Assembly (NCBI GenBank): GCA_030700025.1
Contig: JAUYKI010000017.1
Coordinates: forward strand, 2,748-66,747
Length of the DNA: 64,000 nucleotides
Source of the DNA: a bacterium
GTDB taxonomy: Bacteria; Patescibacteriota; Minisyncoccia; UBA6257; 02-FULL-45-10c
Reading direction: 5' to 3'
Made by a program: the position numbers and the translations under genes. The notes below the pieces were generated by a model. It had not been told where the DNA came from. It saw only the letters and a program-made list of their open reading frames with translations, and searched no databases. Numbering within the stretch: the stretch's first letter is position 1; every line of letters starts with the position of its first letter. Shown one piece after another: positions 3,341-63,245 of the stretch.

Positions 3341-3399
3341 TTTTTTAAATTGGACATTTAGAATTTTATTAGAAATTAGATATTAGTAATTAGAAATTT

Positions 3400-4668
3400 A
3401 TGTTTAAAAAGTATGTTTTATCCAGCGGTTTAAGAGTGGTGTTGGCTCCCCAGCCGGACAATGTGGCGGCCACGGTTTTGGTATTGGTAGAGGCGGGATC
3501 AAAATACGAAACCAAAAAAATTAACGGCTTATCTCATTTTTTGGAACATTTATGTTTTAAGGGAACGGCTAAGCGGCCGACGGCGATTGCCATTGCTTCA
3601 GAATTGGAATCTTTGGGAGCGGTTTACAATGCTTTTACCGGGCACGAAGTAACCGGTTATTACGCCAAAGTCGGCGCGTCTAAAATTAATTCGGCTTTGG
3701 ATATTATCGCCGATCTTTATCAGGACCCGGTTTTTGACGAAGCGGAATTTGAAAAAGAAAAAGGAGTTATTATTGAAGAAATTAATTTATACGAAGATAC
3801 GCCGACCCGGAAAGTCCAGGAACTTTTTACGGAATTGATGTACGGCGATCAGCCGGCCGGCTGGCCCATCGGCGGTTTGAAGGAAGTAATTTTGTCGTTA
3901 AAAAAACAGGATGTTTTGAATTACCGCTCGGAGCACTACGTGGCTAAGGCTACGACCGTAGTGGTTGCTGGCGCTTTTAATGAAAAAGAAATGCTGAAAA
4001 GAATAAAAACGCTTTTTGCTAAAACTCCGGCTAACAAAAAATTCTCTAAAATCCGCACTCAAGAATCCCAGGCCCGGCCTCAAACTTTAGTGCGCTTTAA
4101 AAAATCAGACCAAACTCATTTGGTAATGGGCTTCCGGGCATTTGACCGGTACGATAAACGGCAGTACGCGCTGGAAGTTTTAGCGGATATTTTGGGCGGC
4201 GGCATGAGCTCCCGGCTTTTTCAAAGAATCAGGGCAGAATTAGGCGCGGCTTATTACGTTAAAGCCGGAACCGATTTATTTACGGATCATGGATTTTTGT
4301 CCGTATCGGCCGGAGTGGACCACCGGAAATTAAAAGAAGTTATTGAGGCAGCTTTGGGGGAGTTTAAGAAAATTTCTTCGGTTTTGGTAACTTCCAATGA
4401 GCTAGAAAAATCTAAGAATCATTTGACCGGCCAGGCGATGCTGGGTTTGGAAACCTCGGACGCCTTAGCCAGTTTTTACGGAGAACAGGAGATTTTCCAG
4501 GAAAAGATATTGAACCTTCGGGACGTTATTAAAAAAATAGAGGCCGTGACCGCTAAAGACGTTTTAAACGTTGCCCGTGAAATTATGAAGGATAAAAAGT
4601 TGAATTTGGCGCTTATCGGACCGGTCAAGAAGCTTCCGACCGGGCTGGATTTTAGTTTGGGGCGGTAG
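3400..4668 (+). CDS. M16-family zinc metallopeptidase (insulinase/pitrilysin-like)
   Basis: HxxEH inverted zinc-binding motif (HFLEHLCFKGT); 422 aa, typical M16B length and order. Confidence 0.85.
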   Translation: MFKKYVLSSGLRVVLAPQPDNVAATVLVLVEAGSKYETKKINGLSHFLEHLCFKGTAKRPTAIAIASELESLGAVYNAFTGHEVTGYYAKVGASKINSALDIIADLYQDPVFDEAEFEKEKGVIIEEINLYEDTPTRKVQELFTELMYGDQPAGWPIGGLKEVILSLKKQDVLNYRSEHYVAKATTVVVAGAFNEKEMLKRIKTLFAKTPANKKFSKIRTQESQARPQTLVRFKKSDQTHLVMGFRAFDRYDKRQYALEVLADILGGGMSSRLFQRIRAELGAAYYVKAGTDLFTDHGFLSVSAGVDHRKLKEVIEAALGEFKKISSVLVTSNELEKSKNHLTGQAMLGLETSDALASFYGEQEIFQEKILNLRDVIKKIEAVTAKDVLNVAREIMKDKKLNLALIGPVKKLPTGLDFSLGR

Positions 4669-4716: not shown

Positions 4717-5745
4717 ATGGAAAAAGGAACTTTATTTGAGATTAGCTGGAGCAGCCTGTGGCGCATAGTGGTAATGCTGGTTTTGGGCAGCATTGTTTTT
4801 TTTGCTAAAGACGTTTTGGTGGCGGTGGCTTTGGCGATAGTCATTTCCTCGGCCTTTGATCCGCTGGTGAGCGCTTTGGAGCGCTGGCGGATTCCCCGGG
4901 TTTTGGGCACTCTTGGCATTTTTATTTTGATTATTGTCGGTTTAGCAATGGTGCTTTACACTATTGTTCCTTTGGCGCTTTCGGAGTTAAACGTTTTGTT
5001 GAATACTTTAACCGAAATTGACGCTCCGTTTTTGGGATTGGAACAATTATCCGCGGTAGTTAAAACCCTTAACGAGGGAATCGGCCGGCTGGCGAATCTT
5101 TTAATCAGCGGCAGCGCTTCTATATTAGATGCCGTATCTCGGTTTTTGGGCGGAATTGCTTTAGTAATCTCGGTTTTTATCCTTTCCTTCTATTTAACTA
5201 TTGACCGGGACGGCATAGAGAACTTCTTAAAGGCAATTTTGCCGCCTAGTTACGAAGATCAGGTTTTAGATATTTATTTCCGGGTCCGGAGGAAGATTGG
5301 CCGCTGGCTGCAGGGCCAGATTTTCTTGAGCTTGAGCATCGGTTTTAGCACCTTTATAGCCCTTTGGAGTTTGGGAATTAAATACAGCCTGATCCTGGGA
5401 ATCTTGGCTGGTATGTTAGAAATTGTTCCGTTTGTGGGCCCGATTTTCAGCGGCGCCATAGCTTTCTTGATTGCCCTTTCGCAGTCATTCTCGTCGGCAA
5501 TTTACGTTCTGATACTTTTTATCGTGATTCAGCAATTAGAAGGGCATTTATTGGTACCGACTTTTATGCGTTTGGCCACCGGCTTGAATCCGGCTTTAAT
5601 TCTGATCGCCCTTTTAATCGGAAGCCAGCTTTTGGGATTTATCGGATTGATTTTGGCGGTTCCAGCCGCGGTGCTGGCGCAAGAAGTTATTAATTTCTGG
5701 TCTTTGTCTAAAAACAAAAAGAAGGCAGCGATGCTAAACGTTTAG
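4717..5745 (+). CDS. AI-2E family transporter (PerM/UPF0118 membrane protein)
   Basis: 342-aa polytopic membrane protein with the AI-2E-like pattern (…QIFLSLSIGF…LEIVPFVGPIFSGAIAFLIAL…). Confidence 0.75.
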   Translation: MEKGTLFEISWSSLWRIVVMLVLGSIVFFAKDVLVAVALAIVISSAFDPLVSALERWRIPRVLGTLGIFILIIVGLAMVLYTIVPLALSELNVLLNTLTEIDAPFLGLEQLSAVVKTLNEGIGRLANLLISGSASILDAVSRFLGGIALVISVFILSFYLTIDRDGIENFLKAILPPSYEDQVLDIYFRVRRKIGRWLQGQIFLSLSIGFSTFIALWSLGIKYSLILGILAGMLEIVPFVGPIFSGAIAFLIALSQSFSSAIYVLILFIVIQQLEGHLLVPTFMRLATGLNPALILIALLIGSQLLGFIGLILAVPAAVLAQEVINFWSLSKNKKKAAMLNV

Positions 5746-5802: not shown

Positions 5803-6092
5803 AGAACCTATCTCAATAATATTTCCTAACCGCGTTGCTAAGATAAATGCCAGATTTCAAGGCACGACGACGAAATTATGGCCATAGCCACATTGAGGAG
5901 GAGTAACGAAGAAATATGGCATTTAGACCGCAACCCAAAGGGACATAGTAAATTTTGTTCATAACTTCGTTGCTCGGGCTCGACGTAGCCAAGCTACAGT
6001 CTCGCCCCTGCCTGCCGGTAGGCAGGCTCGCGCCTTGTTCTGAATCAAAATTTACTTATATCGCGTTTGGAATTATTATTGGGATAGGTTCT
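5803..6092. repeat. Family-A palindromic intergenic element, copy 1 (~290 bp); its 3' end abuts the metG ATG
   Basis: Terminal inverted repeat AGAACCTATCTCAATAATATTTCC … GGAATTATTATTGGGATAGGTTCT. Internal conserved core GCCATAGCCACAyTGAGGAGG…AACGAAG … CTTCGTTGCTCG. Related copies at 27767-28041 and 44559-44831. Confidence 0.7.
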
Positions 6093-7722: not shown

Positions 7723-7744
7723 TAACCCCGGTACTAAAAAGAAA

Positions 7745-8470
7745 AATCCCCCGACATGCGTCAGGGGAAATGATGATGGGCAACAGTTGCTTTGCAGTGT
7801 TATGAGGTATTAGCCTCTAGCCATAAAGTGGCTGTCTGTTCTGCGTTGCTTCTGTTGCCGTTGACTCGGAATTTTGTCAGGGCGGGTGGACACCGGGTTA
7901 GCTCGCGCGGCTGAAAGAAAGTCAGCCTTCTATTCCCGGCGCCACCTTTGGCAGTGAGATGGTTGTAACACCCCACCGGCCAGCAGCCTGCCCCGACTTT
8001 ACGTCGGGGTCCCCTCCGGCTTGTGACCGGAGGATGATTCCAAATAGCAGTTGCCTTTCGCAGATTATGAGCCTATTGGGCTCTGACCAAAAAAGTGGTC
8101 TTCTTTCTGTTAGCTTCTGTTATTGGATGATTCCGCCCCGACGCTTTGTAAGCCGTCGGGGATACTGCTACTTGGTGAGCCGGTCCTAAGGTAGCGAATC
8201 TTTGGTTTCCTACCCACCAAGATGATGCTTCTTATTGTAGTTAAGGAACGAAAGTAGCGCGATGTGACTCTGCAACTGTCCAGTTTGTGTTGCATCGGAG
8301 CGGAATACCCGGGTGGACGGCCCCAAGGCTCCTACGGCTCTTTGCCTGATCTCGGGTTCTTCCCGACGTCAACCAAGCATTGTAAGAACCAAAGCCAGCA
8401 TCGCTAAGTAAGGATAGCACACCTCAAACCCTTTGTCAATAGCGGGTTTGCAATCTCTAAATTCTAATCC
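7745..8470. other. ORF-free hairpin-rich region of ~700 bp between metG and tatD (candidate structured RNA or decayed element)
   Basis: No ORF longer than 76 codons on either strand. Coding-like GC content. Several strong GC hairpins: CCCCGACtttacGTCGGGG, CCTCCGGcttgtgaCCGGAGG, CCCCGACGctttgtaagcCGTCGGGG. Internal duplicated segment ('GGATGATTCC', 'TTCTGTT…GCTTCTGTT'). Includes a 17-nt string GGTCCTAAGGTAGCGAA identical to a universally conserved 23S rRNA segment, but the flanks are not rRNA-like. Confidence 0.35.
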
Positions 8471-8603
8471 CTAATCTCTAAATAAACTCGAAGCTCAAAT
8501 ATCCGGATTTTTAAATTTTATTTTTGAGATTGGACATTGGAAATTGTTTAGAAATTAGGGTTTAGGAATTAGAAATTTATCAAAACATGTTATTATTAAT
8601 TCC

Positions 8604-9473: not shown

Positions 9474-9551
9474 GCAGTTTCACTTTGATAAGCCCTCCGA
9501 CGGGTTCGACAAGCTCACCGCGGGCAATCTTGGGGTAAAGGAGGCGCTAAC

Positions 9552-11694: not shown

Positions 11695-11716
11695 AGACTA
11701 AAAATCAAAAAATTTA

Positions 11717-11743
11717 ACCCCGATAAATGTCGGGGTTTTTAAT
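11717..11743 (+). terminator. Rho-independent terminator after the acyl-CoA ligase gene
   Basis: CCCCGAtaaatgTCGGGG followed by TTTTTAATTT. Confidence 0.7.
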
Positions 11744-11745
11744 TT

Positions 11746-11891
11746 AGAAAGAGTGTTTTATTCTCCCGCTACTGTTCAAACTCCCGGCGAGAGTTTTCAC
11801 TGGGTCTCGGGCTTCGCTCTTTCCGCCTTTGGCGGAAAACCCTGCCCGCTCAGCCCTCAGCCCGCGCTACGGAGAATAAAACACTCTTTCT
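11746..11891. repeat. Family-B palindromic element, copy 1 (~146 bp)
   Basis: Terminal inverted repeat AGAAAGAGTGTTTTATTCTC … GAGAATAAAACACTCTTTCT. The interior is the reverse complement of the copy at 36625-36809 (shared GAGCGAAGCCCGAGACCCAGTGAAAAC and GCTGAGCGGGCAGGG blocks). Confidence 0.7.
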
Positions 11892-11996
11892 AATTTTTAT
11901 GGAAATAAAAAAACCACGGCTTAACGCACCGTGGTATTGATTAGCGCCCTTGCTAATGCCCGCAAGAGTAAAGGGTTATGCCGAAACGGGCCCTGA

Positions 11997-12116
11997 TCAG
12001 GAATAGTGGCAGGTCAGGTTCAGGGCCATTACCAGAAGGATCATCGCGCCCGCCACGCCCACTATCACCCAGGCGACCTCCTGGCTCACCTTCTTCTCGT
12101 TCAGATACTTCATCAT
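11997..12116 (-). CDS. 39-aa single-TM micropeptide (not in the ORF track)
   Basis: CAAGGAGGctgcacATGATG start context; MMKYLNEKKVSQEVAWVIVGVAGAMILLVMALNLTCHYS. Lies directly downstream of the 65-aa membrane ORF on the same strand. Confidence 0.4.
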   Translation of the reverse strand: MMKYLNEKKVSQEVAWVIVGVAGAMILLVMALNLTCHYS

Positions 12117-12135: not shown

Positions 12136-12333
12136 TTACTTTGGGCCCGAGATGGGGTTCTGTCGTTTCTTGAGCCCGCCTAACAAAAGACCAATCAGAA
12201 GGCCGATCAGGTATCCGATGTACAAACTGCAGCCTATGGTCACGAACGATGCGTGAGGGGTTCGCGGAGTCTCGAAGGCGTAGGGCAAAAACATGGCAAC
12301 TATCAACCCGATACCAAGCTGAATCATATACAC
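12136..12333 (-). CDS. 65-aa two-TM small membrane protein
   Basis: GGGAGG Shine-Dalgarno upstream; hydrophobic LIGLLIGLLLGG segment. Tandem with the 39-aa peptide gene. Confidence 0.45.
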   Translation of the reverse strand: MYMIQLGIGLIVAMFLPYAFETPRTPHASFVTIGCSLYIGYLIGLLIGLLLGGLKKRQNPISGPK

Positions 12334-14966: not shown

Positions 14967-15028
14967 AAGAAAAATTATCTCGTCTTCGTTGCTTTAGTAT
15001 AAAATCATCAGTTATATATGTATATATG

Positions 15029-15164
15029 CCCGGTATTACAACTTTGATCGTAAAAGTTTCAGCGAGTTATTTAAGAAAAACTATGAAATTACCTAATTTA
15101 TTAATTATAAAGTCGACAAAGCGCTTAATTTTAATTAAGCGCCAATCAAAGTTGTAATACCGGG
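15029..15164. promoter_or_regulatory. 20-bp inverted repeat enclosing a ~95-bp AT-rich segment with an inner perfect palindrome, immediately 5' of the glmS ATG
   Basis: CCCGGTATTACAACTTTGAT at 15029-15048 pairs with ATCAAAGTTGTAATACCGGG at 15145-15164. Inner palindrome AAGCGCTTAATTTTAATTAAGCGCC. The glmS ATG is at 15166. Confidence 0.45.
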
Positions 15165-15165
15165 T

Positions 15166-17028
15166 ATGTGCGGTATAGTCGGTTACATCGGAAAACAGAA
15201 AGCCGCTCCCATACTTTTGGACGGCATTAAAAGCTTGGAGTATCGCGGTTATGATTCAGCGGGAATTTCCGTGATTAATAATCAAGGAGGAGTGGCGGAG
15301 GCGCAAGTGGAAAAAGCGGTTGGCAAAGTAATTAATTTAGAAAATAAAATAAAGTCCCGGGAGCTGTTAGGCGGCCTCGGGATTATTCATACCCGCTGGG
15401 CCACTCATGGCGGAGCCACCGAGGCCAATGCTCATCCGCATAGCGATTGCGCTGGCAATATTTGGCTGGTTCACAATGGAATTATTGAGAATTATAAAGA
15501 GCTAAAAAATGAACTGATTTCCGCCGGCCATCAGTTTAAATCGGAAACTGACACGGAAGTCGTTGCTCATTTAATCGAAGAGCAAGTTAAAAGTTTAAAG
15601 TCAAAAGTTCAAAGTTATGCGTTAGAGGACGCGGTGCGGTTAGCTTTGAAAAAAGTCCGCGGAGCTTACGCGCTGGCGATTATTGATAAGCGCGAGCCGG
15701 AAAAATTAGTGGCCGTCCGGAATTCCAGCCCGCTGATTTTGGGAATCGGCAATGATGAATATCTGGTGGCTTCGGACGCTTCGGCGGTAGTAAAGCATAC
15801 CCGCAAAGTGATTTATTTTAATGACGGCGAAATGGCAATTTTAACTCCGGATAATCATCGGGTGGTTAATCTGGAAAACCAGGCAGTAGATTCTCAGCCG
15901 CAAGAATTAGATTGGACTGTGGAAAGCGCCCAGAAAGGAGGCTATCCGCATTTTATGCTGAAAGAAATTTTTGAACAGCCGGAAGCGGTAGAAAATTGTT
16001 TGCGCGGAAGATTGGTAGTTCAAGAGGGAACGGCTAAACTGGGCGGATTGGAATCCATTAAAGATAAATTGCGGGAAATAAAAAGAATTCATATTTCCGC
16101 CTGCGGTACGGCTTATTTGGCCGGAAAAGTGGGTGAATATATGCTGGAAGAATATGCCGGCATTCCGGTAGAAGTGGATTTGGCTTCCGAGCTTCGTTAT
16201 CGCAAACCCGTTTTTGATAATCATGACGCGGTGCTGGTGATTTCCCAATCCGGAGAAACGGCGGATACGCTGGCTTCGGTAAAAGAAGCCAAGGAAAAGG
16301 GAATTTTAACTTTAGGCATTGTTAATACGGTGGGATCGTCCATTGCCCGGGAAACCGAAGCCGGAATTTATCAGCATATCGGTCCGGAAATCGGCGTAGC
16401 TTCCACCAAAGCATTTACTTCGCAGGTGGCGGTGCTGGCGCTCTTAACTTTATTTTTGGGAAGGCAGCGGCAAATGTCTTTGGTAACCGGCGAGCGGATC
16501 GCGCGGGAATTGCAGAGGTTGCCGGAATTAATCCGAAAAGTTTTGCAGTCCGAAGATTTAATAAAACAAATCGCCGTCAAATATCAGACCCACAATAATT
16601 TTTTATACTTAGGCCGGAAATATAATCTGCCGATTGCTTACGAGGGAGCGTTAAAATTAAAAGAAATTTCCTATATCCACGCTGAAGGCTATGGCGCCGG
16701 AGAAATGAAGCACGGCCCGATTGCCATGATTGACCAGAATTTGCCGTCGGTAGTAATTGTTCCGTCGGACTCGGTTTATGAAAAAACTGTTTCTAATATT
16801 GAGGAAATTCGCGCCCGTCGAGGTCCGGTTATCGCCATTGCCACTGAAGGCAACGAAGATATTAAAAGTTTGGCGGACGACGTTATTTATATTCCGAAAT
16901 CTTTGGAAATGCTGACTCCGATTTTATCGGCGGTTCCGCTCCAGCTTTTTGCTTATCATGTCGGAGTTTTGCGGGGATTGGACGTAGATAAGCCCCGTAA
17001 TCTCGCTAAATCGGTTACCGTGGAATAA
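15166..17028 (+). CDS. glmS: Glutamine--fructose-6-phosphate aminotransferase (isomerising)
   Basis: N-terminal MCGIVGY with a Cys2 nucleophile; two SIS domains; C-terminal …SVTVE; 620 aa. Confidence 0.95.
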   Translation: MCGIVGYIGKQKAAPILLDGIKSLEYRGYDSAGISVINNQGGVAEAQVEKAVGKVINLENKIKSRELLGGLGIIHTRWATHGGATEANAHPHSDCAGNIWLVHNGIIENYKELKNELISAGHQFKSETDTEVVAHLIEEQVKSLKSKVQSYALEDAVRLALKKVRGAYALAIIDKREPEKLVAVRNSSPLILGIGNDEYLVASDASAVVKHTRKVIYFNDGEMAILTPDNHRVVNLENQAVDSQPQELDWTVESAQKGGYPHFMLKEIFEQPEAVENCLRGRLVVQEGTAKLGGLESIKDKLREIKRIHISACGTAYLAGKVGEYMLEEYAGIPVEVDLASELRYRKPVFDNHDAVLVISQSGETADTLASVKEAKEKGILTLGIVNTVGSSIARETEAGIYQHIGPEIGVASTKAFTSQVAVLALLTLFLGRQRQMSLVTGERIARELQRLPELIRKVLQSEDLIKQIAVKYQTHNNFLYLGRKYNLPIAYEGALKLKEISYIHAEGYGAGEMKHGPIAMIDQNLPSVVIVPSDSVYEKTVSNIEEIRARRGPVIAIATEGNEDIKSLADDVIYIPKSLEMLTPILSAVPLQLFAYHVGVLRGLDVDKPRNLAKSVTVE

Positions 17029-17530: not shown

Positions 17531-17630
17531 GTTTTTCCCCGTGCTGAGCTTGTCGAAGCGCTCGATTCACTTTTCAATCTGCGTTAGCAATACTATTATG
17601 ACAGCCGTTAAGTGTCAATTGTTAAAAGTT

Positions 17631-20019: not shown

Positions 20020-20068
20020 TTGGCTTGTATCGCGTTATGGGATTACTATTAGAATAGGTTCTATTATG
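20020..20068. repeat. Partial family-A element, 3' portion of ~50 nt, abutting the ATG of the downstream secreted-protein gene
   Basis: TTGGCTTGTATCGCGTTATGGGATTACTATTAGAATAGGTTCTATTATGG. Compare the copy-3 end TTGGCTAATATCGCGTTATGGGATTATTATTGGGATAGGTTCTATG. Confidence 0.55.
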
Positions 20069-27147: not shown

Positions 27148-27280
27148 AAACAAACACTCCGCATAGCGGGGTGTTTTACTTTGGCTTGTCCTGCCTGCCC
27201 TGAGTCGTATCGAAGGGAGTTTGCTGGCAGTGAGCTTGTCGAATCTGCCGAAGGGGCTTGCGTTGAGCAAGGTCGAAGTG

Positions 27281-28957: not shown

Positions 28958-30130
28958 TTGAAAACTGATAAAAAGGCGGTTACGATGGAACCGAAAAAGG
29001 GCTTGCGTGATGTTCCGGCCGGACAGACCCGGCTTTGCTTGTTGGATGAAGCCAACAGCGAACTTTATTATTGCGGTTATTCTATCAGGGATTTAGTTGA
29101 GCATTATCCCTATGAAGCCGTGGCTTATTTGATGCTTCACGGCGAATTGCCTTCCGAGTCGGAATTAAAAATTTTCACCCGTCGCCTGGTGAATAACGCA
29201 TGGAATATGCCTCAAGTGGTAGTTAAGAGTTTGGAGTTAAAAACTCCATTCACTGATGCCCATCCGATGGATAAATTGTCACTGATAATCCGGGCTGACG
29301 GCAATACTCACGGCATTCCGTTTTCTACGCCATCGTTAGAGAATAATTTGGACTTAGCGAAATCTTTGATTGCCCGGTTGCCTTTAATGGTTGCTTTGCT
29401 GGGCGGCGCTAGCCGGAATTATTTTGACTATTTTGATCCAGACCGCACGCTGATGGAAAATTTTGTAGATTCTTTGCGGATCCCGAACGAAGGCGGTTTG
29501 GCAACGAAATTAATGAATGTCGCGTTTATTCTTTACGCGGAACATGAATTCAACGCCGGGTCTTTCGCGGTTCGGGTGGCAGCCAGCGCGCACACCGATA
29601 TTTATTCCGCGGTTTTGGGAGGATTAGGAACTTTGCGCGGTACTCGCCACGGCGGAGCCAATGAAGAAGTAATGAAGAAGATGCTGGAAATCGGAACACC
29701 GGAAAAAACGCGCGAATATTGCGACCGATTTTTGTCTCAGCCGGGAGCGCGCTTGCCGGGATTTGGCCACGCGGTTTATACCATCGGCGATCCGCGGGTA
29801 GCGGTTCTCCGCCCGCTGGTAAAAGATTTGTCGGTCCGAAAGAACGATATGCGCTGGTATGAAATTGCTGTCGCGCTGGAAGAATATATGGCGGAGCGTT
29901 CTCGGGGAAAGTCTAAGCCCTTGCCGGCTAACACTGACCTTTGGACGGCGCCGTTATATCACTTGCTGGGCATCCCGATTCGTCTTTTCACCCCGCTTTT
30001 CGCCGCCTCCCGGGTTTCCGGCTGGTGCGGACATTATTTGGAAGTGCGGCATGTTTACAACGAACCGATTCTTCGGCCGCGCGCCGAATATGTCGGATCC
30101 GCTCCTCGGAAAGTAATCCCTCACTCTTGA
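28958..30130 (+). CDS. Citrate synthase-family protein (citrate/2-methylcitrate synthase-like)
   Basis: HGGANEEV catalytic-His block and GFGHAVY motif; 390 aa. The last 4 codons plus the stop (IPHS*) are encoded by a family-D element. Confidence 0.75.
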   Translation: MKTDKKAVTMEPKKGLRDVPAGQTRLCLLDEANSELYYCGYSIRDLVEHYPYEAVAYLMLHGELPSESELKIFTRRLVNNAWNMPQVVVKSLELKTPFTDAHPMDKLSLIIRADGNTHGIPFSTPSLENNLDLAKSLIARLPLMVALLGGASRNYFDYFDPDRTLMENFVDSLRIPNEGGLATKLMNVAFILYAEHEFNAGSFAVRVAASAHTDIYSAVLGGLGTLRGTRHGGANEEVMKKMLEIGTPEKTREYCDRFLSQPGARLPGFGHAVYTIGDPRVAVLRPLVKDLSVRKNDMRWYEIAVALEEYMAERSRGKSKPLPANTDLWTAPLYHLLGIPIRLFTPLFAASRVSGWCGHYLEVRHVYNEPILRPRAEYVGSAPRKVIPHS

Positions 30131-30191
30131 AAGAATTAACCTCGCTTATAGCGAGGTTTTTTATAGCAACGTTATTTCAAAAGTGAGGGAT
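30116..30191. repeat. Family-D palindromic element containing a terminator hairpin
   Basis: ATCCCTCACTCTTGAAA … TTTCAAAAGTGAGGGAT arms. Inner hairpin AACCTCGCTTATAGCGAGGTT followed by TTTTAT. Confidence 0.65.
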
Positions 30192-33060: not shown

Positions 33061-34599
33061 ATGGGACCGGAAGAAGCAGATCAGTTAGTTCAGAAATATT
33101 TTAAGCGAAAGGGATTGCCGTTAATGCCAGCAGTTACCTTTGATGATGTTTTAGTTCGGGAAGGAATTTCCAGCATTGCTAGCCGGAGCGACATTACTAA
33201 TTTAAAGGCTCAGCTGGCAAAAGATTTTTGGCTGAATATTCCGGTAGTGTCCGCTAATATGGACACGGTTACGGATTCGCGTATGGCAATTGCTTTGGCT
33301 CGGCTGGGCGGTATGGGTTTCATCCATCAGTTCGTTTCGCTGGAAGACCGGCTGGAAGAAGTCAGCAAGGTTAAGCGGGCGGACAATATGGTGATTGAAA
33401 ATCCGGCGACCATTCGTCCGGAAGCAACTTGGGCGGAAGCGCAAGCGGTAATGGCGGAACGGGAAATTTCCTGTTTGCTGGTTACTGACGCGCAAGGAAT
33501 TTTGGCCGGCATCTTAACGTCGCGCGATACTCAATTTTGTTCCGACCCCAACGCTTTAGTTGGAGATTTAATGACTCCGAAAACCAGAGACGGACACTTT
33601 GTTTTGCAAACTGCCCGTCCGGATATTTCCAATGAAGACGCGGAAAAAATGTTAAAGCGTTCCAAGGTAGAAAAACTTCCTTTAATAGATGATGAGGGCA
33701 AGGTGGTTGGATTGATTACGGCGAAAGATATTTTAAAGCGCCGGATGTTTCCCAACGCGGCCCGGGACGAAAAGGGCCAGCTGTTAGTTGGCGCTACTTT
33801 GCGGTTCAGCGGAAATTATTTGGAAGAAGCGAAAGCGTTGATCGACGCCGGAGCGGATGTATTGCTGTTAGATACGGCGCGAGCCAGTTCTTCATCAGAG
33901 GACGGAATTTTGGCGTCGCAGTATTTAACGCCCGGGAAAATTGTGGAATTAGCCGCGGAAAGAACCGCGAAAATTAAATACGTGTTTCCAAAAATAGTTT
34001 TAGTGGTTGGTAATACTGCCAATCCGGAAGCGGTGGCGCTTCTGGCAAGCCGTGGAGCGGATTGCGTTAAAATCGGAATTGGGCCGGGAGCGGGATGTAA
34101 GACTCAGGAAGTAGCCGGAATCGGTTCGCCTCAGCTTCACGCGATCGCGCAATGCGCGGCGGTGGCCAGAGAAATCGGAGTTTGTTTAATGGCTGACGGC
34201 GGAATTAGAAATGGCGGTTGCATGGTTAAAGCGCTAGTTGGCGGAGCAAATGTGGTGATGCTGGGAAGTTTGCTGGCGGGAACCGACAAATCTCCGGGCC
34301 TGCTGGTTTGGAATCGAAAGGAAAATAAACTGGTTAAGAAATACCGCGGTTCGGCATCCACTGAACATCAGCTGGATAGGATTAAAGTTGGGGATTTGCA
34401 CGCGGTTAGAACGTCAGAGGGCGAAGCCGGAGCGGTTCCTTACATGGGCACGACGGTTTCGCTGATTGATGATCTGCTTGGCGGATTGCGGTCGGGCATG
34501 AGTTATGTCGGCGCCCATAACCTAGAAGAGCTTTGGCAGTTCGGCAGATTTGTTTGGAGAACGCAGGCCGGAATTGAAGAAGGAAGACCCCGAATATAA
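33061..34599 (+). CDS. guaB: IMP dehydrogenase (TIM barrel with CBS pair)
   Basis: Catalytic-loop motifs GIGPGAGCKTQ and GGIRNGG; tandem CBS insert; 512 aa. Confidence 0.9.
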   Translation: MGPEEADQLVQKYFKRKGLPLMPAVTFDDVLVREGISSIASRSDITNLKAQLAKDFWLNIPVVSANMDTVTDSRMAIALARLGGMGFIHQFVSLEDRLEEVSKVKRADNMVIENPATIRPEATWAEAQAVMAEREISCLLVTDAQGILAGILTSRDTQFCSDPNALVGDLMTPKTRDGHFVLQTARPDISNEDAEKMLKRSKVEKLPLIDDEGKVVGLITAKDILKRRMFPNAARDEKGQLLVGATLRFSGNYLEEAKALIDAGADVLLLDTARASSSSEDGILASQYLTPGKIVELAAERTAKIKYVFPKIVLVVGNTANPEAVALLASRGADCVKIGIGPGAGCKTQEVAGIGSPQLHAIAQCAAVAREIGVCLMADGGIRNGGCMVKALVGGANVVMLGSLLAGTDKSPGLLVWNRKENKLVKKYRGSASTEHQLDRIKVGDLHAVRTSEGEAGAVPYMGTTVSLIDDLLGGLRSGMSYVGAHNLEELWQFGRFVWRTQAGIEEGRPRI

Positions 34600-34711
34600 A
34601 TTTCTAATTACTAATTTCTAATTACTAATGACTAAGTTCAAAATTCAAATCCCGCAATTGCGGGATTTTTTATTTGAAAATACTTCAAAATTGATTTAAT
34701 ATATTTTCAAC

Positions 34712-36566: not shown

Positions 36567-36624
36567 AAATTTTCGCCTCGGCTTTTTGCCGGGGCTTTTT
36601 ATTTCTACGAAAGCAGTTTTTGAG

Positions 36625-36809
36625 AAAAGAAACTTTATTCTCCGTAGCGCGGGCTGAGCCTGCCTGCCGGTAGGCAGGGGCTGAGCGGGCAGGGTGTCCC
36701 GCGAAGCGGGACGAGCGAAGCCCGAGACCCAGTGAAAACTTCCCTCACTCTTGTACAAAAGTGAGGGACTGGGAGTTTGAACGGTAGCGGGAGAATAAAG
36801 TTTCTTTTC
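36625..36809. repeat. Family-B palindromic element, copy 2 (~185 bp); its right end overlaps the comFC stop codon
   Basis: GAAAAGAAACTTTATTCTC … GAGAATAAAGTTTCTTTTC arms. The internal hairpins differ from copy 1 but stay complementary. It also carries the CCCTCACTCTTG…CAAAAGTGAGGG hairpin and the GCCTGCCGGTAGGCAGG hairpin also present in family-A copy 1. Confidence 0.7.
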
Positions 36810-37543
36810 TAGCGTGTTTTAGCAATTACCAACGCGATTATTTTTTTGGCGCCGGCGGATTTTAAAGTTTTAGCGGCTTCGCGGATAGTGGCTCCGGAAG
36901 TGTGAACGTCGTCAACGAGAAGGATATTTTTTCCCACTATCAGTTCTGGGTAATTAACCGCGAAGCAGTTAATCACATTTTGCGCCCGTTCTTCATGATT
37001 CTTGGCAAGCGACTGGGTTTTAGTATTTTTAATTCTTTGAATCGGCTCCGTTAAATCTAATTTATAAAAATCAGCAACAATTTTCGCAATCAATTTTGCC
37101 TGATTAAATCCGCGTTCTTTTTCCCGATCTTCGTGAAGCGGGATTGGAACCACGGTAAAATTTCTAATATCTAAATCCAAATTTCTAAGATACGAGACTA
37201 GAATTTCGCCTAATGGCCTTTGAAGCCGCTGCCATTTTTTAAATTTAAATAATTTCAGCAAAGTCCGGATGGAATCGTTATCGTAATTAGTGGCGGCGGC
37301 CAAAAGATAAGGAGAATCTTTATGGCAGACCTTTTTATTATCCGCCAGGCGCAATCCGCAAACCGGGCAAAAAAGCGAAGTATTGAGGCGGATGCCGGCC
37401 CAGCACTCCGGGCAAAGATCGCCTTCAGCGTTTTTTTGGCAGTTTAAGCAGAGCGGAGGAAAGAGGATGTCCCACAGCCAGGTTTTCATTTTTTGGAGAT
37501 AGCTCATGTCTGTTATACTAATAATAGATTTAGAATAAGGCAA
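36809..37543 (-). CDS. comFC: ComF-family competence protein (double zinc ribbon plus phosphoribosyltransferase fold)
   Basis: N-terminal CLNCQ…CPECW…CPVCG zinc fingers; C-terminal PRTase motif VLLVDDVHTSGAT. Confidence 0.8.
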   Translation of the reverse strand: MPYSKSIISITDMSYLQKMKTWLWDILFPPLCLNCQKNAEGDLCPECWAGIRLNTSLFCPVCGLRLADNKKVCHKDSPYLLAAATNYDNDSIRTLLKLFKFKKWQRLQRPLGEILVSYLRNLDLDIRNFTVVPIPLHEDREKERGFNQAKLIAKIVADFYKLDLTEPIQRIKNTKTQSLAKNHEERAQNVINCFAVNYPELIVGKNILLVDDVHTSGATIREAAKTLKSAGAKKIIALVIAKTR

Positions 37544-37750
37544 TGGATTCCAATAACTAATTTCTAATATCTAATTTCTAATAAAATGACCGAAATCACA
37601 AACCACAAGCACCAAATCACAAACAAGCACCAATGACCAAAATCATAAATTTAAAACCCGTTTGGAATTTCTATTATTTGAATTTAGAATTTGTTTGTAA
37701 TTTGAGATTTGTAATTTGGAATTTTATCAGAAATTGTAAATTGTAAATTT

Positions 37751-44557: not shown

Positions 44558-44558
44558 T

Positions 44559-44831
44559 GAACCTATCCCAATAATAATCCTCAAACGCGTTGCTAGTATA
44601 AATTGAAAATTTCTAGGCCTGCCGAGGAGCTTGTGGCCATAGCCACAGTGAGGAGGCAGAACAACGAAATTTTCAATTTAGACAGCAACCCCAAGAGGGA
44701 TACAGCCAATTTTATCCATAACGTCGTTGCTCGTCGAAGATATAGCTTACGCTATAAATCTTCTCCTCGCGTCTAGTTCTGAATAAAATTGGCTAATATC
44801 GCGTTATGGGATTATTATTGGGATAGGTTCT
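44559..44831. repeat. Family-A palindromic element, copy 3; begins 2 nt after the pilC stop
   Basis: GAACCTATCCCAATAATAATCC … GGATTATTATTGGGATAGGTTC arms; core GCCATAGCCACAGTGAGGAGG … CTTCTCCTCG. Confidence 0.7.
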
Positions 44832-46175: not shown

Positions 46176-46300
46176 TAGTGTTAAATATCTTAAATAAGAA
46201 ATAATCTTACCTATACTTATTCTCGCCATGGCGAGAATAAGTATAGGGCAGGATAGTTTAAGCTTGGTCTAAGCTTAAACTAAGTTCTATTCCGGCTTCA

Positions 46301-55125: not shown

Positions 55126-55253
55126 CGAAGCAACATCTCTTTAAGGGAACATCCCGCAGGCGTATTTTGCTTGGACCACAAAATACGCCGAGGGCGAAGA
55201 AAATCCGGCCGCTGGAGCCGGATTATTCTGTTTCCCAAAAAAGAGATGTTGCT
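55126..55253. repeat. Multi-hairpin palindromic intergenic element (14-bp outer inverted repeat)
   Basis: AGCAACATCTCTTT … AAAGAGATGTTGCT enclosing the hairpins GCGTATTTTG…CAAAATACGC and ATCCGGCcgctggaGCCGGAT. Confidence 0.55.
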
Positions 55254-55325
55254 AAGATCCTTGACGGGGATTTTTTAATGCCATAAAATATACTGGCGTT
55301 CTTTAACAAAGCAACAAGGTAGCCT

Positions 55326-57093: not shown

Positions 57094-57162
57094 AGTTTAT
57101 TCCCCCTAGACTGCGGTCAGGGGGAATTTTTATTAGGATAGGTTCTTGGTATAATTTAAGTA

Positions 57163-57610: not shown

Positions 57611-59665
<2,055 letters not shown>

Positions 59666-62373: not shown

Positions 62374-62485
62374 AAGCCGCGATCGCTTTAATTAATAATA
62401 TTATTTCCATTTATTATGCATGGTCGTTATTATAAAAATATATTACGTAGAATCGCTTTGATCGCGATCTGCTTCTAACGGGATG
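62364..62485. repeat. Family-C palindromic element spanning from the gatA stop codon to the ATG of the next gene
   Basis: ATCCCGTTAGAAGCCGCGATCGC … GATCGCGATCTGCTTCTAACGGGATGG. The TAG at 62371-62373 is the gatA stop; the ATG at 62483 is the downstream start. Confidence 0.7.
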
Positions 62486-63121
62486 GCAAAACCACCAGAA
62501 ACAAGCCCTCCTCCTTCCGGATTAGATTTTATAATCTTAATTTTTCTTTTCATGGCGATCTTGCCTATGATCGGAGGATTTTTGGTTTATTTAGGCGATC
62601 CGAGCGGCTTACTGACCCGGATAAAAGAATTTTTGGCTCCCTACCTGCTTAATAATTTATGGTGGATGAAAATTGTATCGGTTTTAATATCCGGATTATT
62701 CGTCTGGGGAATAGCCCATATTTTATCTAAATTGAATTACGTGAATCTGCGAACCGAACAATTTTTAAATATTTTGGGCAGTTCGGGATTAAGTCGGCGC
62801 CGGTCTTTGCGCGCCTGGAGGCAGATTCAAGCGAGATTGGCGGTTGAAGATCCCCAGCAATGGAAAATAGCTATTTTAGAAGCGGATGAGATTTTAAACG
62901 AAGTTCTAAAATTATCGGGTTATTTGGGAAAAATGGAGGATAAGCTGGATTTAATTACTCCAGCGCAGTTGGCCAGCATTGAAGACATTAAAATAGCGCA
63001 TCGGATTCGTAATCAGATTTCCGGCAGCCCGGCCTTTGAATTATCGCGGGAAGTCGCCGAAAGAACCGCTCATATTTACAGAAGGGCGTTTGTGGAAACG
63101 AATTTAATCCCTCACTCTTGA
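62483..63121 (+). CDS. Membrane protein of unknown function (2 TM helices)
   Basis: 212 aa. The start codon is donated by the family-C right arm, and the C-terminal …IPHS* is encoded by a family-D left arm. Confidence 0.5.
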   Translation: MAKPPETSPPPSGLDFIILIFLFMAILPMIGGFLVYLGDPSGLLTRIKEFLAPYLLNNLWWMKIVSVLISGLFVWGIAHILSKLNYVNLRTEQFLNILGSSGLSRRRSLRAWRQIQARLAVEDPQQWKIAILEADEILNEVLKLSGYLGKMEDKLDLITPAQLASIEDIKIAHRIRNQISGSPAFELSREVAERTAHIYRRAFVETNLIPHS

Positions 63122-63245
63122 AGCGCTGCGATTTCTGAACGCTTGTTGTAATATACTGTTTTTTATCCCCCAGACTTTATTTACGGATATTTAATGCCCC
63201 ATAGAGAAATCAACTAGGCGTTTCGGCGCTTCAAAAGTGAGGGAT
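63107..63245. repeat. Family-D palindromic element (~140 bp)
   Basis: ATCCCTCACTCTTGAAGCGC … GCGCTTCAAAAGTGAGGGAT arms. Confidence 0.65.

Follow-up and report, generated by a model that had tools for sequence, protein, structure and literature searches.

The closest described counterparts of the element considered here are the REP, REPIN, and BIME repeats, the bacterial MITEs (Correia/CREE, RUP, Nezha), and the pneumococcal BOX elements. REPINs form single-stranded DNA hairpins that show compensated stem changes together with conserved ends, and they are mobilized by RAYT transposases (PMC3116915). Their hosts are Pseudomonas and enterobacteria. The genomes of the CPR/Patescibacteria are tiny and usually thought to be poor in repetitive DNA, and no description of REP- or MITE-type families in this group was found in the literature searched.

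The subject of the present analysis is family B, an element that occurs twice in the window, by which we mean the whole 64-kb stretch of DNA analyzed, from an uncultured member of the Parcubacteria (CPR), and once in a related genome. Family B is probably a new family of the ordinary selfish-repeat kind and not a demonstrated RNA gene.

Sequence and Architecture of the Window Copies

Reading and alignment of both loci show that 11746-11891 and 36623-36810 are reverse complements of each other, which bears out the original observation, and all four blocks that had been quoted as common are found in both copies. Searched with up to three mismatches, the blocks GAGCGAAGCCCGAGACCCAGTGAAAAC, TTATTCTCCGTAGCGCGGGCTGAG, and GGGAGTTTGAACNGTAGCGGGAGAATAA have their sole matches in the 64 kb at the two copies, the random expectation being 0 matches (100 shuffles). 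A repeat finder, run independently, recovers the same family-B arms.

The predicted fold of both window copies is a GC-rich branched core enclosed by a closing stem, P1. The whole fold-back of copy 1, including the flanking AATTT, spans 11741-11896 (−), with an MFE of −74.8 kcal/mol (z −7.6) and a CM score of 177 bits, and that of copy 2 spans 36622-36812 (+), with an MFE of −99.6 kcal/mol (z −8.7) and a CM score of 147 bits. In element orientation, the 5′ arm of P1 in copy 1 (11871-11891, −) consists of AGAAAGAGTGT and TTTATTCTCC, and the 3′ arm (11746-11767, −) of a conserved inner part, GGGAGAATAAA, and a variable outer part, ACACTCTTTCT. In the repeat finder, these arms are 26 nt long and 96% complementary. 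The corresponding arms of copy 2 are located at 36623-36643 (+, AGAAAAGAAAC and TTTATTCTCC) and 36789-36810 (+, GGGAGAATAAA and GTTTCTTTTCT). The right end of copy 2 had been placed on the comFC stop codon, and indeed the outer part of this arm, 36800-36810, overlaps the TAG at 36809-36811 (−) with its last 2 nt.

The closing stem measures about 21 bp in each copy, and copies 1 and 2 agree fully in its inner 10 bp (TTTATTCTCC/GGAGAATAAA). The outer 11 bp carry six differences per arm and are still perfectly paired. As had been noted, AGAAAGAGTGT and AGAAAAGAAAC differ at 6/11 positions, each matching its own partner. A direct AATTT repeat (11741-11745 and 11892-11896) surrounds copy 1 only; no flanking direct repeat was found around copy 2 or around the copy in the related genome.

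The family-B backbone is about 150 nt long, the inner half of the closing stem being conserved and the outer half variable but always paired. The core is GC-rich, non-palindromic, and branched, and it contains two hairpins and the invariant blocks GTAGCGCGG, AGCGGGCAGGGT, CCAGTGA, and GTAGCGGGAG; the motif GTAGCG appears twice in direct orientation, in GTAGCGCGG and in GTAGCGGGAG. Conserved block 3, GAGCGAAGCCCGAGACCCAGTGAAAAC, is identical in copy 1 (11793-11819, −) and copy 2 (36713-36739, +, located by the block search). Hairpin A, adjacent to this block, reads TTCCGCC-AAA-GGCGGAA in copy 1 (11821-11837, −) and GTCCCGC-GAA-GCGGGAC in copy 2 (36696-36712, +). Three of its seven pairs are altered on both sides between the two, and the stem of copy 2 is the same as that of the copy in the related genome, so that copy 1 differs from both by compensated pair changes.

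Nested Modules

The internal hairpins had been described as swapped but compensating between the copies. This description holds for hairpin A, as it does for the outer arms, but not for the other two differences, which are insertions of nested mini-palindromes. One of these is module M1, a 20-nt hairpin (CCTGCCTGCCGGTAGGCAGG, 36659-36678, +) inserted cleanly between two GGCTGAG units that copy 1 has side by side. The other had been taken for a swapped 34-nt hairpin module and is actually a 28-nt palindrome, module M2 (TCCCTCACTCTTG-TA-CAAAAGTGAGGGA, 36741-36768, +), which is nested in hairpin B and is terminator-like on the − strand.

Both modules occur elsewhere. A second exact copy of M1 (6007-6026, +) forms a clean indel in an unrelated fold-back of about 290 nt (5803-6092 compared with 44558-44831), and near-identical M1 hairpins are present in the relatives L015 and L016. 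The arms of M2 are found as a pair at 30117-30191 (+; arms at 30118/30189), around a 48-nt spacer containing a terminator, and at 63108-63245 (+; arms at 63109/63243), around a spacer of about 110 nt, as well as in the relative L013 (6861/6994), there with one compensated change. The citrate-synthase ORF 28958-30130 and the unrelated ORF 62483-63121 both end with ...IPHS* within the left arm of M2. A single C–A mismatch is kept in all M2 copies, corresponding to a G–U pair on the opposite strand.

The occurrence of M1 and M2 outside family B, together with the third family member described below, supports one half of the suggestion that the element is either a mosaic of hairpin modules or a family of structured RNAs, namely the mosaic; the RNA half is not supported.

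The fold-back that carries M1 belongs to a second family of about 290 nt, whose two copies (5803-6092, the one bearing M1, and 44558-44831) are 84% identical to each other and have arms AGAACCTATC..GGGATAGGTTCT. Loose copies of these arms are located at 20038-20062 and 57122-57146. In L014 and L016, the interval between the orthologs of the AI-2E-transporter and MetRS genes lacks this second family.

Third Copy and Copy Number

Family B is not confined to the two window copies, the case that, if combined with an absence of transcription, had been named as one that would leave a simple dispersed repeat. A third member, 151 nt long, is present in another genome (L014:5846-5996, GCA_964646555.1), at a locus that differs from those of both window copies, with a MetRS-like gene on one side and, on the other, the terminator of a large non-coding region that is conserved. 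The LeuRS of L014 is 78% identical to that of the window. Among named organisms, LeuRS and ComF point to Parcubacteria/Paceibacteria near "Candidatus Harrisonbacteria" as the nearest relatives.

The third copy has an MFE of −76.3 kcal/mol (z −5.7) and a CM score of 139 bits. Its inner arms are as in the window, and it has the blocks GTAGCGCGG, AGCGGGCAGGGT, CCAGTGA, and CGGTAGCGGGAGAATAAA in common with the window copies, its outer arms being yet another pair, GGAAACC/GGTTTCC. The kinship among the three copies is reticulate, copy 2 having the blocks of copy 1 but hairpin A and part of the outer arm of the L014 copy. At the 3′ end of the MetRS-like gene of L014, AGCGGTAGCGGGTGAG (5678-5690, −) matches the 3′ block of the third copy over 12 nt in inverted orientation; located about 280 nt from that copy, it is possibly a fragment of a second, decayed one.

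In total, family B counts two copies in the 64-kb window, one in 32 kb of the second genome, and none in about 90 kb from the remaining relatives. When the window and its relatives (~190 kb together) are searched with a covariance model derived from the three copies, no additional member is found, and switching the filters off adds only generic hairpins. Scans of genome contigs and metagenome contigs with the 20-mer GCCCGAGACCCAGTGAAAAC gave only chance matches, in coding DNA of unrelated Pseudomonadota and Myxococcota; this probe was taken from the longest block common to the window copies, a block that is not conserved in the L014 copy, and TTTATTCTCCGTAGCGCGG or CGGTAGCGGGAGAATAAA are better suited for scans across genomes. 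Four scans of viral contigs gave nothing or chance matches, and the covariance model finds no member in the 82 loci fetched. A six-frame translation of the element (concatenated) has no match among 5.8 billion proteins, and blastn of the element finds none in phage and plasmid collections.

Occupied and Empty Sites

The site of copy 1 (site 1) is empty in all four relatives compared, L014 (58-nt spacer), L015, L016, and L022 (spacer past the AMP-ligase terminator), the comparison being based on the left flank and the right-hand genes varying among genomes. At this site, L022 has a back-to-back pair of convergent terminators (TTTTTTAT/AAAAAAA). Three lineages (L017; L018, L019, and L020; L021) lack the element at the site of copy 2 (site 2), past the ComF stop codon, and in L021 a bidirectional terminator comes 43 nt after that codon. 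Conversely, the window has no element at the place orthologous to that of the L014 copy. Since the orthologous sites are empty in every relative compared, gain or loss of the element must have taken place within the time over which these genomes diverged; the empty sites could also represent repeated loss.

We have also considered that the outer arms derive from a palindromic target that existed before insertion. This was rejected because the empty sites of the relatives show no such palindrome. L017 has GAAAAGAAACTT-ATT 22 nt past its ComF stop codon, which we regard as a low-complexity coincidence.

The probability that the similarity between the copies arises by chance or from an assembly artefact, such as a chimeric join at a repeat, is practically negligible. 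Both left junctions recur in a Logan assembly made independently from SRR13727534 and are therefore not an artefact of one assembler, no block matches are expected in shuffles, and a homologous element exists in a separate assembly of another genome. What can be said for an artefact is that the short-read Logan contigs break within both elements, so that the right junctions rest on one assembly; the same breaks indicate that the sequence acts as a repeat in the assembly graph.

Genomic Context

All three copies are flanked by convergent transcription units and adjoined by intrinsic terminators, in AT-rich spacers between convergent genes. The neighbors of the window copies are an AMP-ligase, small membrane proteins, ComF, and a 248-aa protein without a Pfam match. 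Directly to the left of copy 1 lies the intrinsic terminator of the AMP-ligase gene (11716-11737, +), which also scores on the − strand, and directly to the right lies that of the small-membrane-protein operon (11913-11935, −; ORFs 11997-12116 and 12136-12333, −). Being placed between two convergent terminators, copy 1 is outside both transcription units. To the left of copy 2 there is an intrinsic terminator at 36575-36595 (+), with an A-tract and a T-tract at its opposite ends. The comFC transcript (−) must cross copy 2 to reach this terminator, which places copy 2 in the 3′-UTR of comFC in reverse orientation.

No sigma-70-like promoter was found beside any of the three copies on either strand, and no reading frame is conserved over the three. 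A coding sequence, or an RPE-like in-frame insert, was accordingly rejected, as the frame that is open in copies 1 and 2 is not kept in the third. A search of the window against Rfam at the gathering threshold returns tRNAs only, and at E ≤ 10 there is no credible match over the element cores. ORF annotation and synteny show no transposase or RAYT in the 64-kb window.

Structural Constraint and the Nature of Family B

The divergence between copies 1 and 2 is very uneven, with one mismatch in about 93 block nucleotides compared with 12/22 in the outer arms. The sequence of the blocks must therefore be strongly constrained, as it would also be in a functional RNA. On the DNA level, the element folds stably on both strands (−36 to −57 kcal/mol). 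In each of the three copies, whether folded as RNA or as DNA, the forward strand surpasses the reverse by 4-9 kcal/mol, and its fold uses G–U pairs in hairpin B; it is the G-rich strand, and such strands tend to fold better anyway. These features show that the shape and specific blocks are constrained; they do not reveal the source of the constraint.

One source could be function as RNA. The copies would then be paralogous genes for an sRNA, or cis-acting 3′-UTR elements, with functional conserved junctions and compensated helices. In the three-copy alignment, 94% of the cells are paired and 17 of 52 pairs are altered on both sides; none of 500 shuffles reaches this pairing and slid controls fall to 37-52%, although the test comprises three sequences and the structure tested was derived from these same sequences. 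The fold z-scores (−5.7 to −8.7), the invariance of the junction blocks next to differing helices, and the advantage of the forward strand with its G–U pairs in every copy point in the same direction. However, compensatory changes are also known from the DNA hairpins of REPINs (PMC3116915), so that covariation alone does not argue for RNA. The context of the copies further weakens this explanation, as no promoter-like site precedes any of them in either orientation, copy 1 lies between convergent terminators outside both transcription units, and copy 2 would be read together with comFC in its reverse, worse-folding orientation. Rfam has no match, and absence from the orthologous sites of all close relatives would be unusual for a functional gene. 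In addition, a perfect closing duplex of about 21 bp is atypical of bacterial sRNAs. Overall, we consider an RNA family possible but rather doubtful.

The placement of the copies bears on a related explanation, namely that they have been domesticated as structural elements and would act as insulators, back-up bidirectional terminators, or protectors of mRNA 3′ ends, which would be compatible with a mobile origin. Such functions have been reported for enterobacterial REP/BIME elements. The location of all three copies between convergent units beside intrinsic terminators would suit these roles, as would the very stable folds on both strands and the position of copy 2 between the comFC stop and the shared terminator, as part of the comFC 3′-UTR. 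Plain terminators suffice at the same sites in relatives, however, and the ends of convergent genes are also where any insertion would be most nearly neutral, which makes domestication unlikely. A more far-reaching proposal is that the invariant unpaired blocks and compensated helices belong to mobile, structured nucleic acids of a new class in the CPR, rather than to a passive transposase substrate. The RNA or single-stranded DNA could then have an activity or a protein partner of its own, for example as a self-processing element or as a scaffold that guides a recombinase; it would move into sites between terminators, its peripheral hairpins being able to accommodate inserted modules. We regard this as very unlikely.

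Family B is instead probably a low-copy, non-coding fold-back insertion element, selfish or once selfish, of the REPIN/MITE/BIME kind, in one Parcubacteria lineage. This reading follows from the insertion polymorphism, the neutral convergent gene ends, the lack of a promoter or partner gene, the nesting of modules, and the crowding of the window with fold-backs. The points that stand against it are the presence of only three copies in about 190 kb, the lack of a transposase or RAYT in the window, the uneven divergence of blocks and outer arms, the alternative of repeated loss at the empty sites, the lack of a consistent target-site duplication, the arm tips that are the least conserved part, opposite to classical TIR transposons, and the folding advantage of the forward strand with its G–U pairs, which is compatible with selection on one RNA strand.

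An insertion element of this kind would be copied or moved in trans by an enzyme encoded elsewhere in the genome. The enzyme may recognize the conserved blocks together with the folded single DNA strand, in the manner of the Y1/HUH (RAYT/IS200-type) transposases. Such recognition of blocks and shape would explain why the blocks are invariant and the stems change only in a compensated fashion. Any RNA would be a passenger; as a stem-loop in the comFC 3′-UTR, copy 2 might at most modulate 3′-end stability or termination. If the core were a functional RNA, family B would be considerably more interesting.

Other Repeats in the Window

At least five unrelated fold-backs are present in the window, and some of the larger palindromes enclose smaller ones. 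This abundance and nesting together suggest an active, structure-dependent mobilization system in these organisms. Fold-back elements break short-read assemblies, create spurious ORFs, and can provide genes with stop codons, as M2 does with ...IPHS*, and they could serve as strain markers.

Between convergent genes at 46210-46247 there is a 38-bp perfect palindrome, CCTATACTTATTCTCGCC ATGG CGAGAATAAGTATAGG. It contains TTATTCTC/GAGAATAA, which are also found in the conserved inner part of the family-B arms. The palindrome may be related to the family-B closing stem and lack the core, or the match may be a coincidence. The interval between LeuRS and GlmS holds an unrelated fold-back (15024-15168) closed by a perfect stem of 20 bp, and another, at 55128-55255, has a 14-bp closing stem around two GC-rich hairpins, an architecture like that of family B. 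A GC-rich intergenic motif, TTCGACAAGCTCACCGCGGGC/GAGCTTGTCGAA, recurs at 9492-9526, 17545-17560, and 27218-27255 and probably corresponds to what had earlier been called family A. In L022, the closest syntenic relative, the TatD–DUF5658 spacer measures 35 nt, compared with 78 nt in the window.

AT-rich repeats of the heptamer type (TTAGAAAT/ATTTCTAA) are found in many intergenic regions (3358-3410, 8448-8580, 34588-34649, 37548-37587, and 58092-58135). Those at 8452-8577 form a long hairpin with a weak match to plant miRNA precursor models. Next to them, the region 7741-8450 (−) is conserved in L014 (6030-6540), with long blocks identical in both genomes, and looks like a non-coding gene. It has a promoter-like TTGACA-17-TATCCT and an intrinsic terminator, matches no Rfam family, and contains GATTCGCTACCTTAGGACCGG, which is complementary to CGGTCCTAAGGTAGCGAA, a stretch of 23S rRNA that is conserved universally. 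The window copy of this region has an internal duplication (about 7770-7860 and 8040-8130).

Comparison with Known Systems

Several structured elements outside the insertion-sequence world were considered and rejected. Like retron msr-msd and Y RNA-like elements, family B has ends that form a closing stem and internal hairpins within it. Retron msr also carries a UAGC motif next to the closing stem, and family B is similar at that position. In contrast to retrons, the family-B copies are dispersed orphans with no adjacent reverse transcriptase or Rsr gene, no promoter, and no Rfam match; the retron assignment was dismissed for want of the reverse transcriptase neighbor and the promoter. Y RNAs and ribozymes were set aside since the neighbors, boxes, or Rfam matches that they call for are absent. 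Integron attC sites have R″/R′ boxes of the form RYYYAAC ... GTTRRRY. The family-B arms (AGAAAC/GTTTCT or GGAAACC/GGTTTCC) are purine-rich where these boxes require pyrimidines, and the copies are isolated, with no integrase in the window, so that attC was rejected as well.

The pneumococcal BOX elements and the BIMEs of E. coli resemble family B in having hairpin modules that are present in some copies and absent from others and that also stand alone. There is no sequence kinship with either, and the family-B modules sit inside host hairpins and not in tandem.

With the REPINs and REP/BIME repeats, family B shares the extragenic, non-coding character, a size of about 100-150 nt, the long hairpin of a single strand, and the frequent position at gene ends. 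All three copies are extragenic with a hairpin-forming strand. The conserved blocks, the compensated stems, and the mosaics with other small palindromes are likewise common to both, the conserved ends and compensation in family B being observed in three sequences, and a GTAG motif is present twice. The two inverted REPs with a GTAG head that define a REPIN are not found, however. Family B is not an inverted doublet of one REP; its core is asymmetric and branched, with the GTAGCG pair in direct orientation. It further differs in its apparent copy number (three in about 190 kb, compared with hundreds per genome for REPINs), in its host phylum, Patescibacteria, and in having no RAYT within the window.

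The bacterial MITEs are similar in being small, in lacking an ORF, and in their long terminal inverted repeats that form a fold-back, as well as in their filled/empty polymorphism, nested insertions, and sites near or over stop codons. The family-B copies are accordingly small (151-191 nt), non-coding, and polymorphic in their presence, with empty sites in L014-L018, L021, and L022. They depart from the MITEs in their arm tips, which are the most variable part and co-vary; the outer 7-11 nt differ in all three copies and the inner 10 nt are kept, instead of conserved TIR tips. In place of a fixed target-site duplication at each copy there is AATTT at copy 1 only, and no parent IS with matching ends is known. 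Because neither the strict MITE nor the strict REPIN definition applies, we have filed family B as a new family of that general kind.
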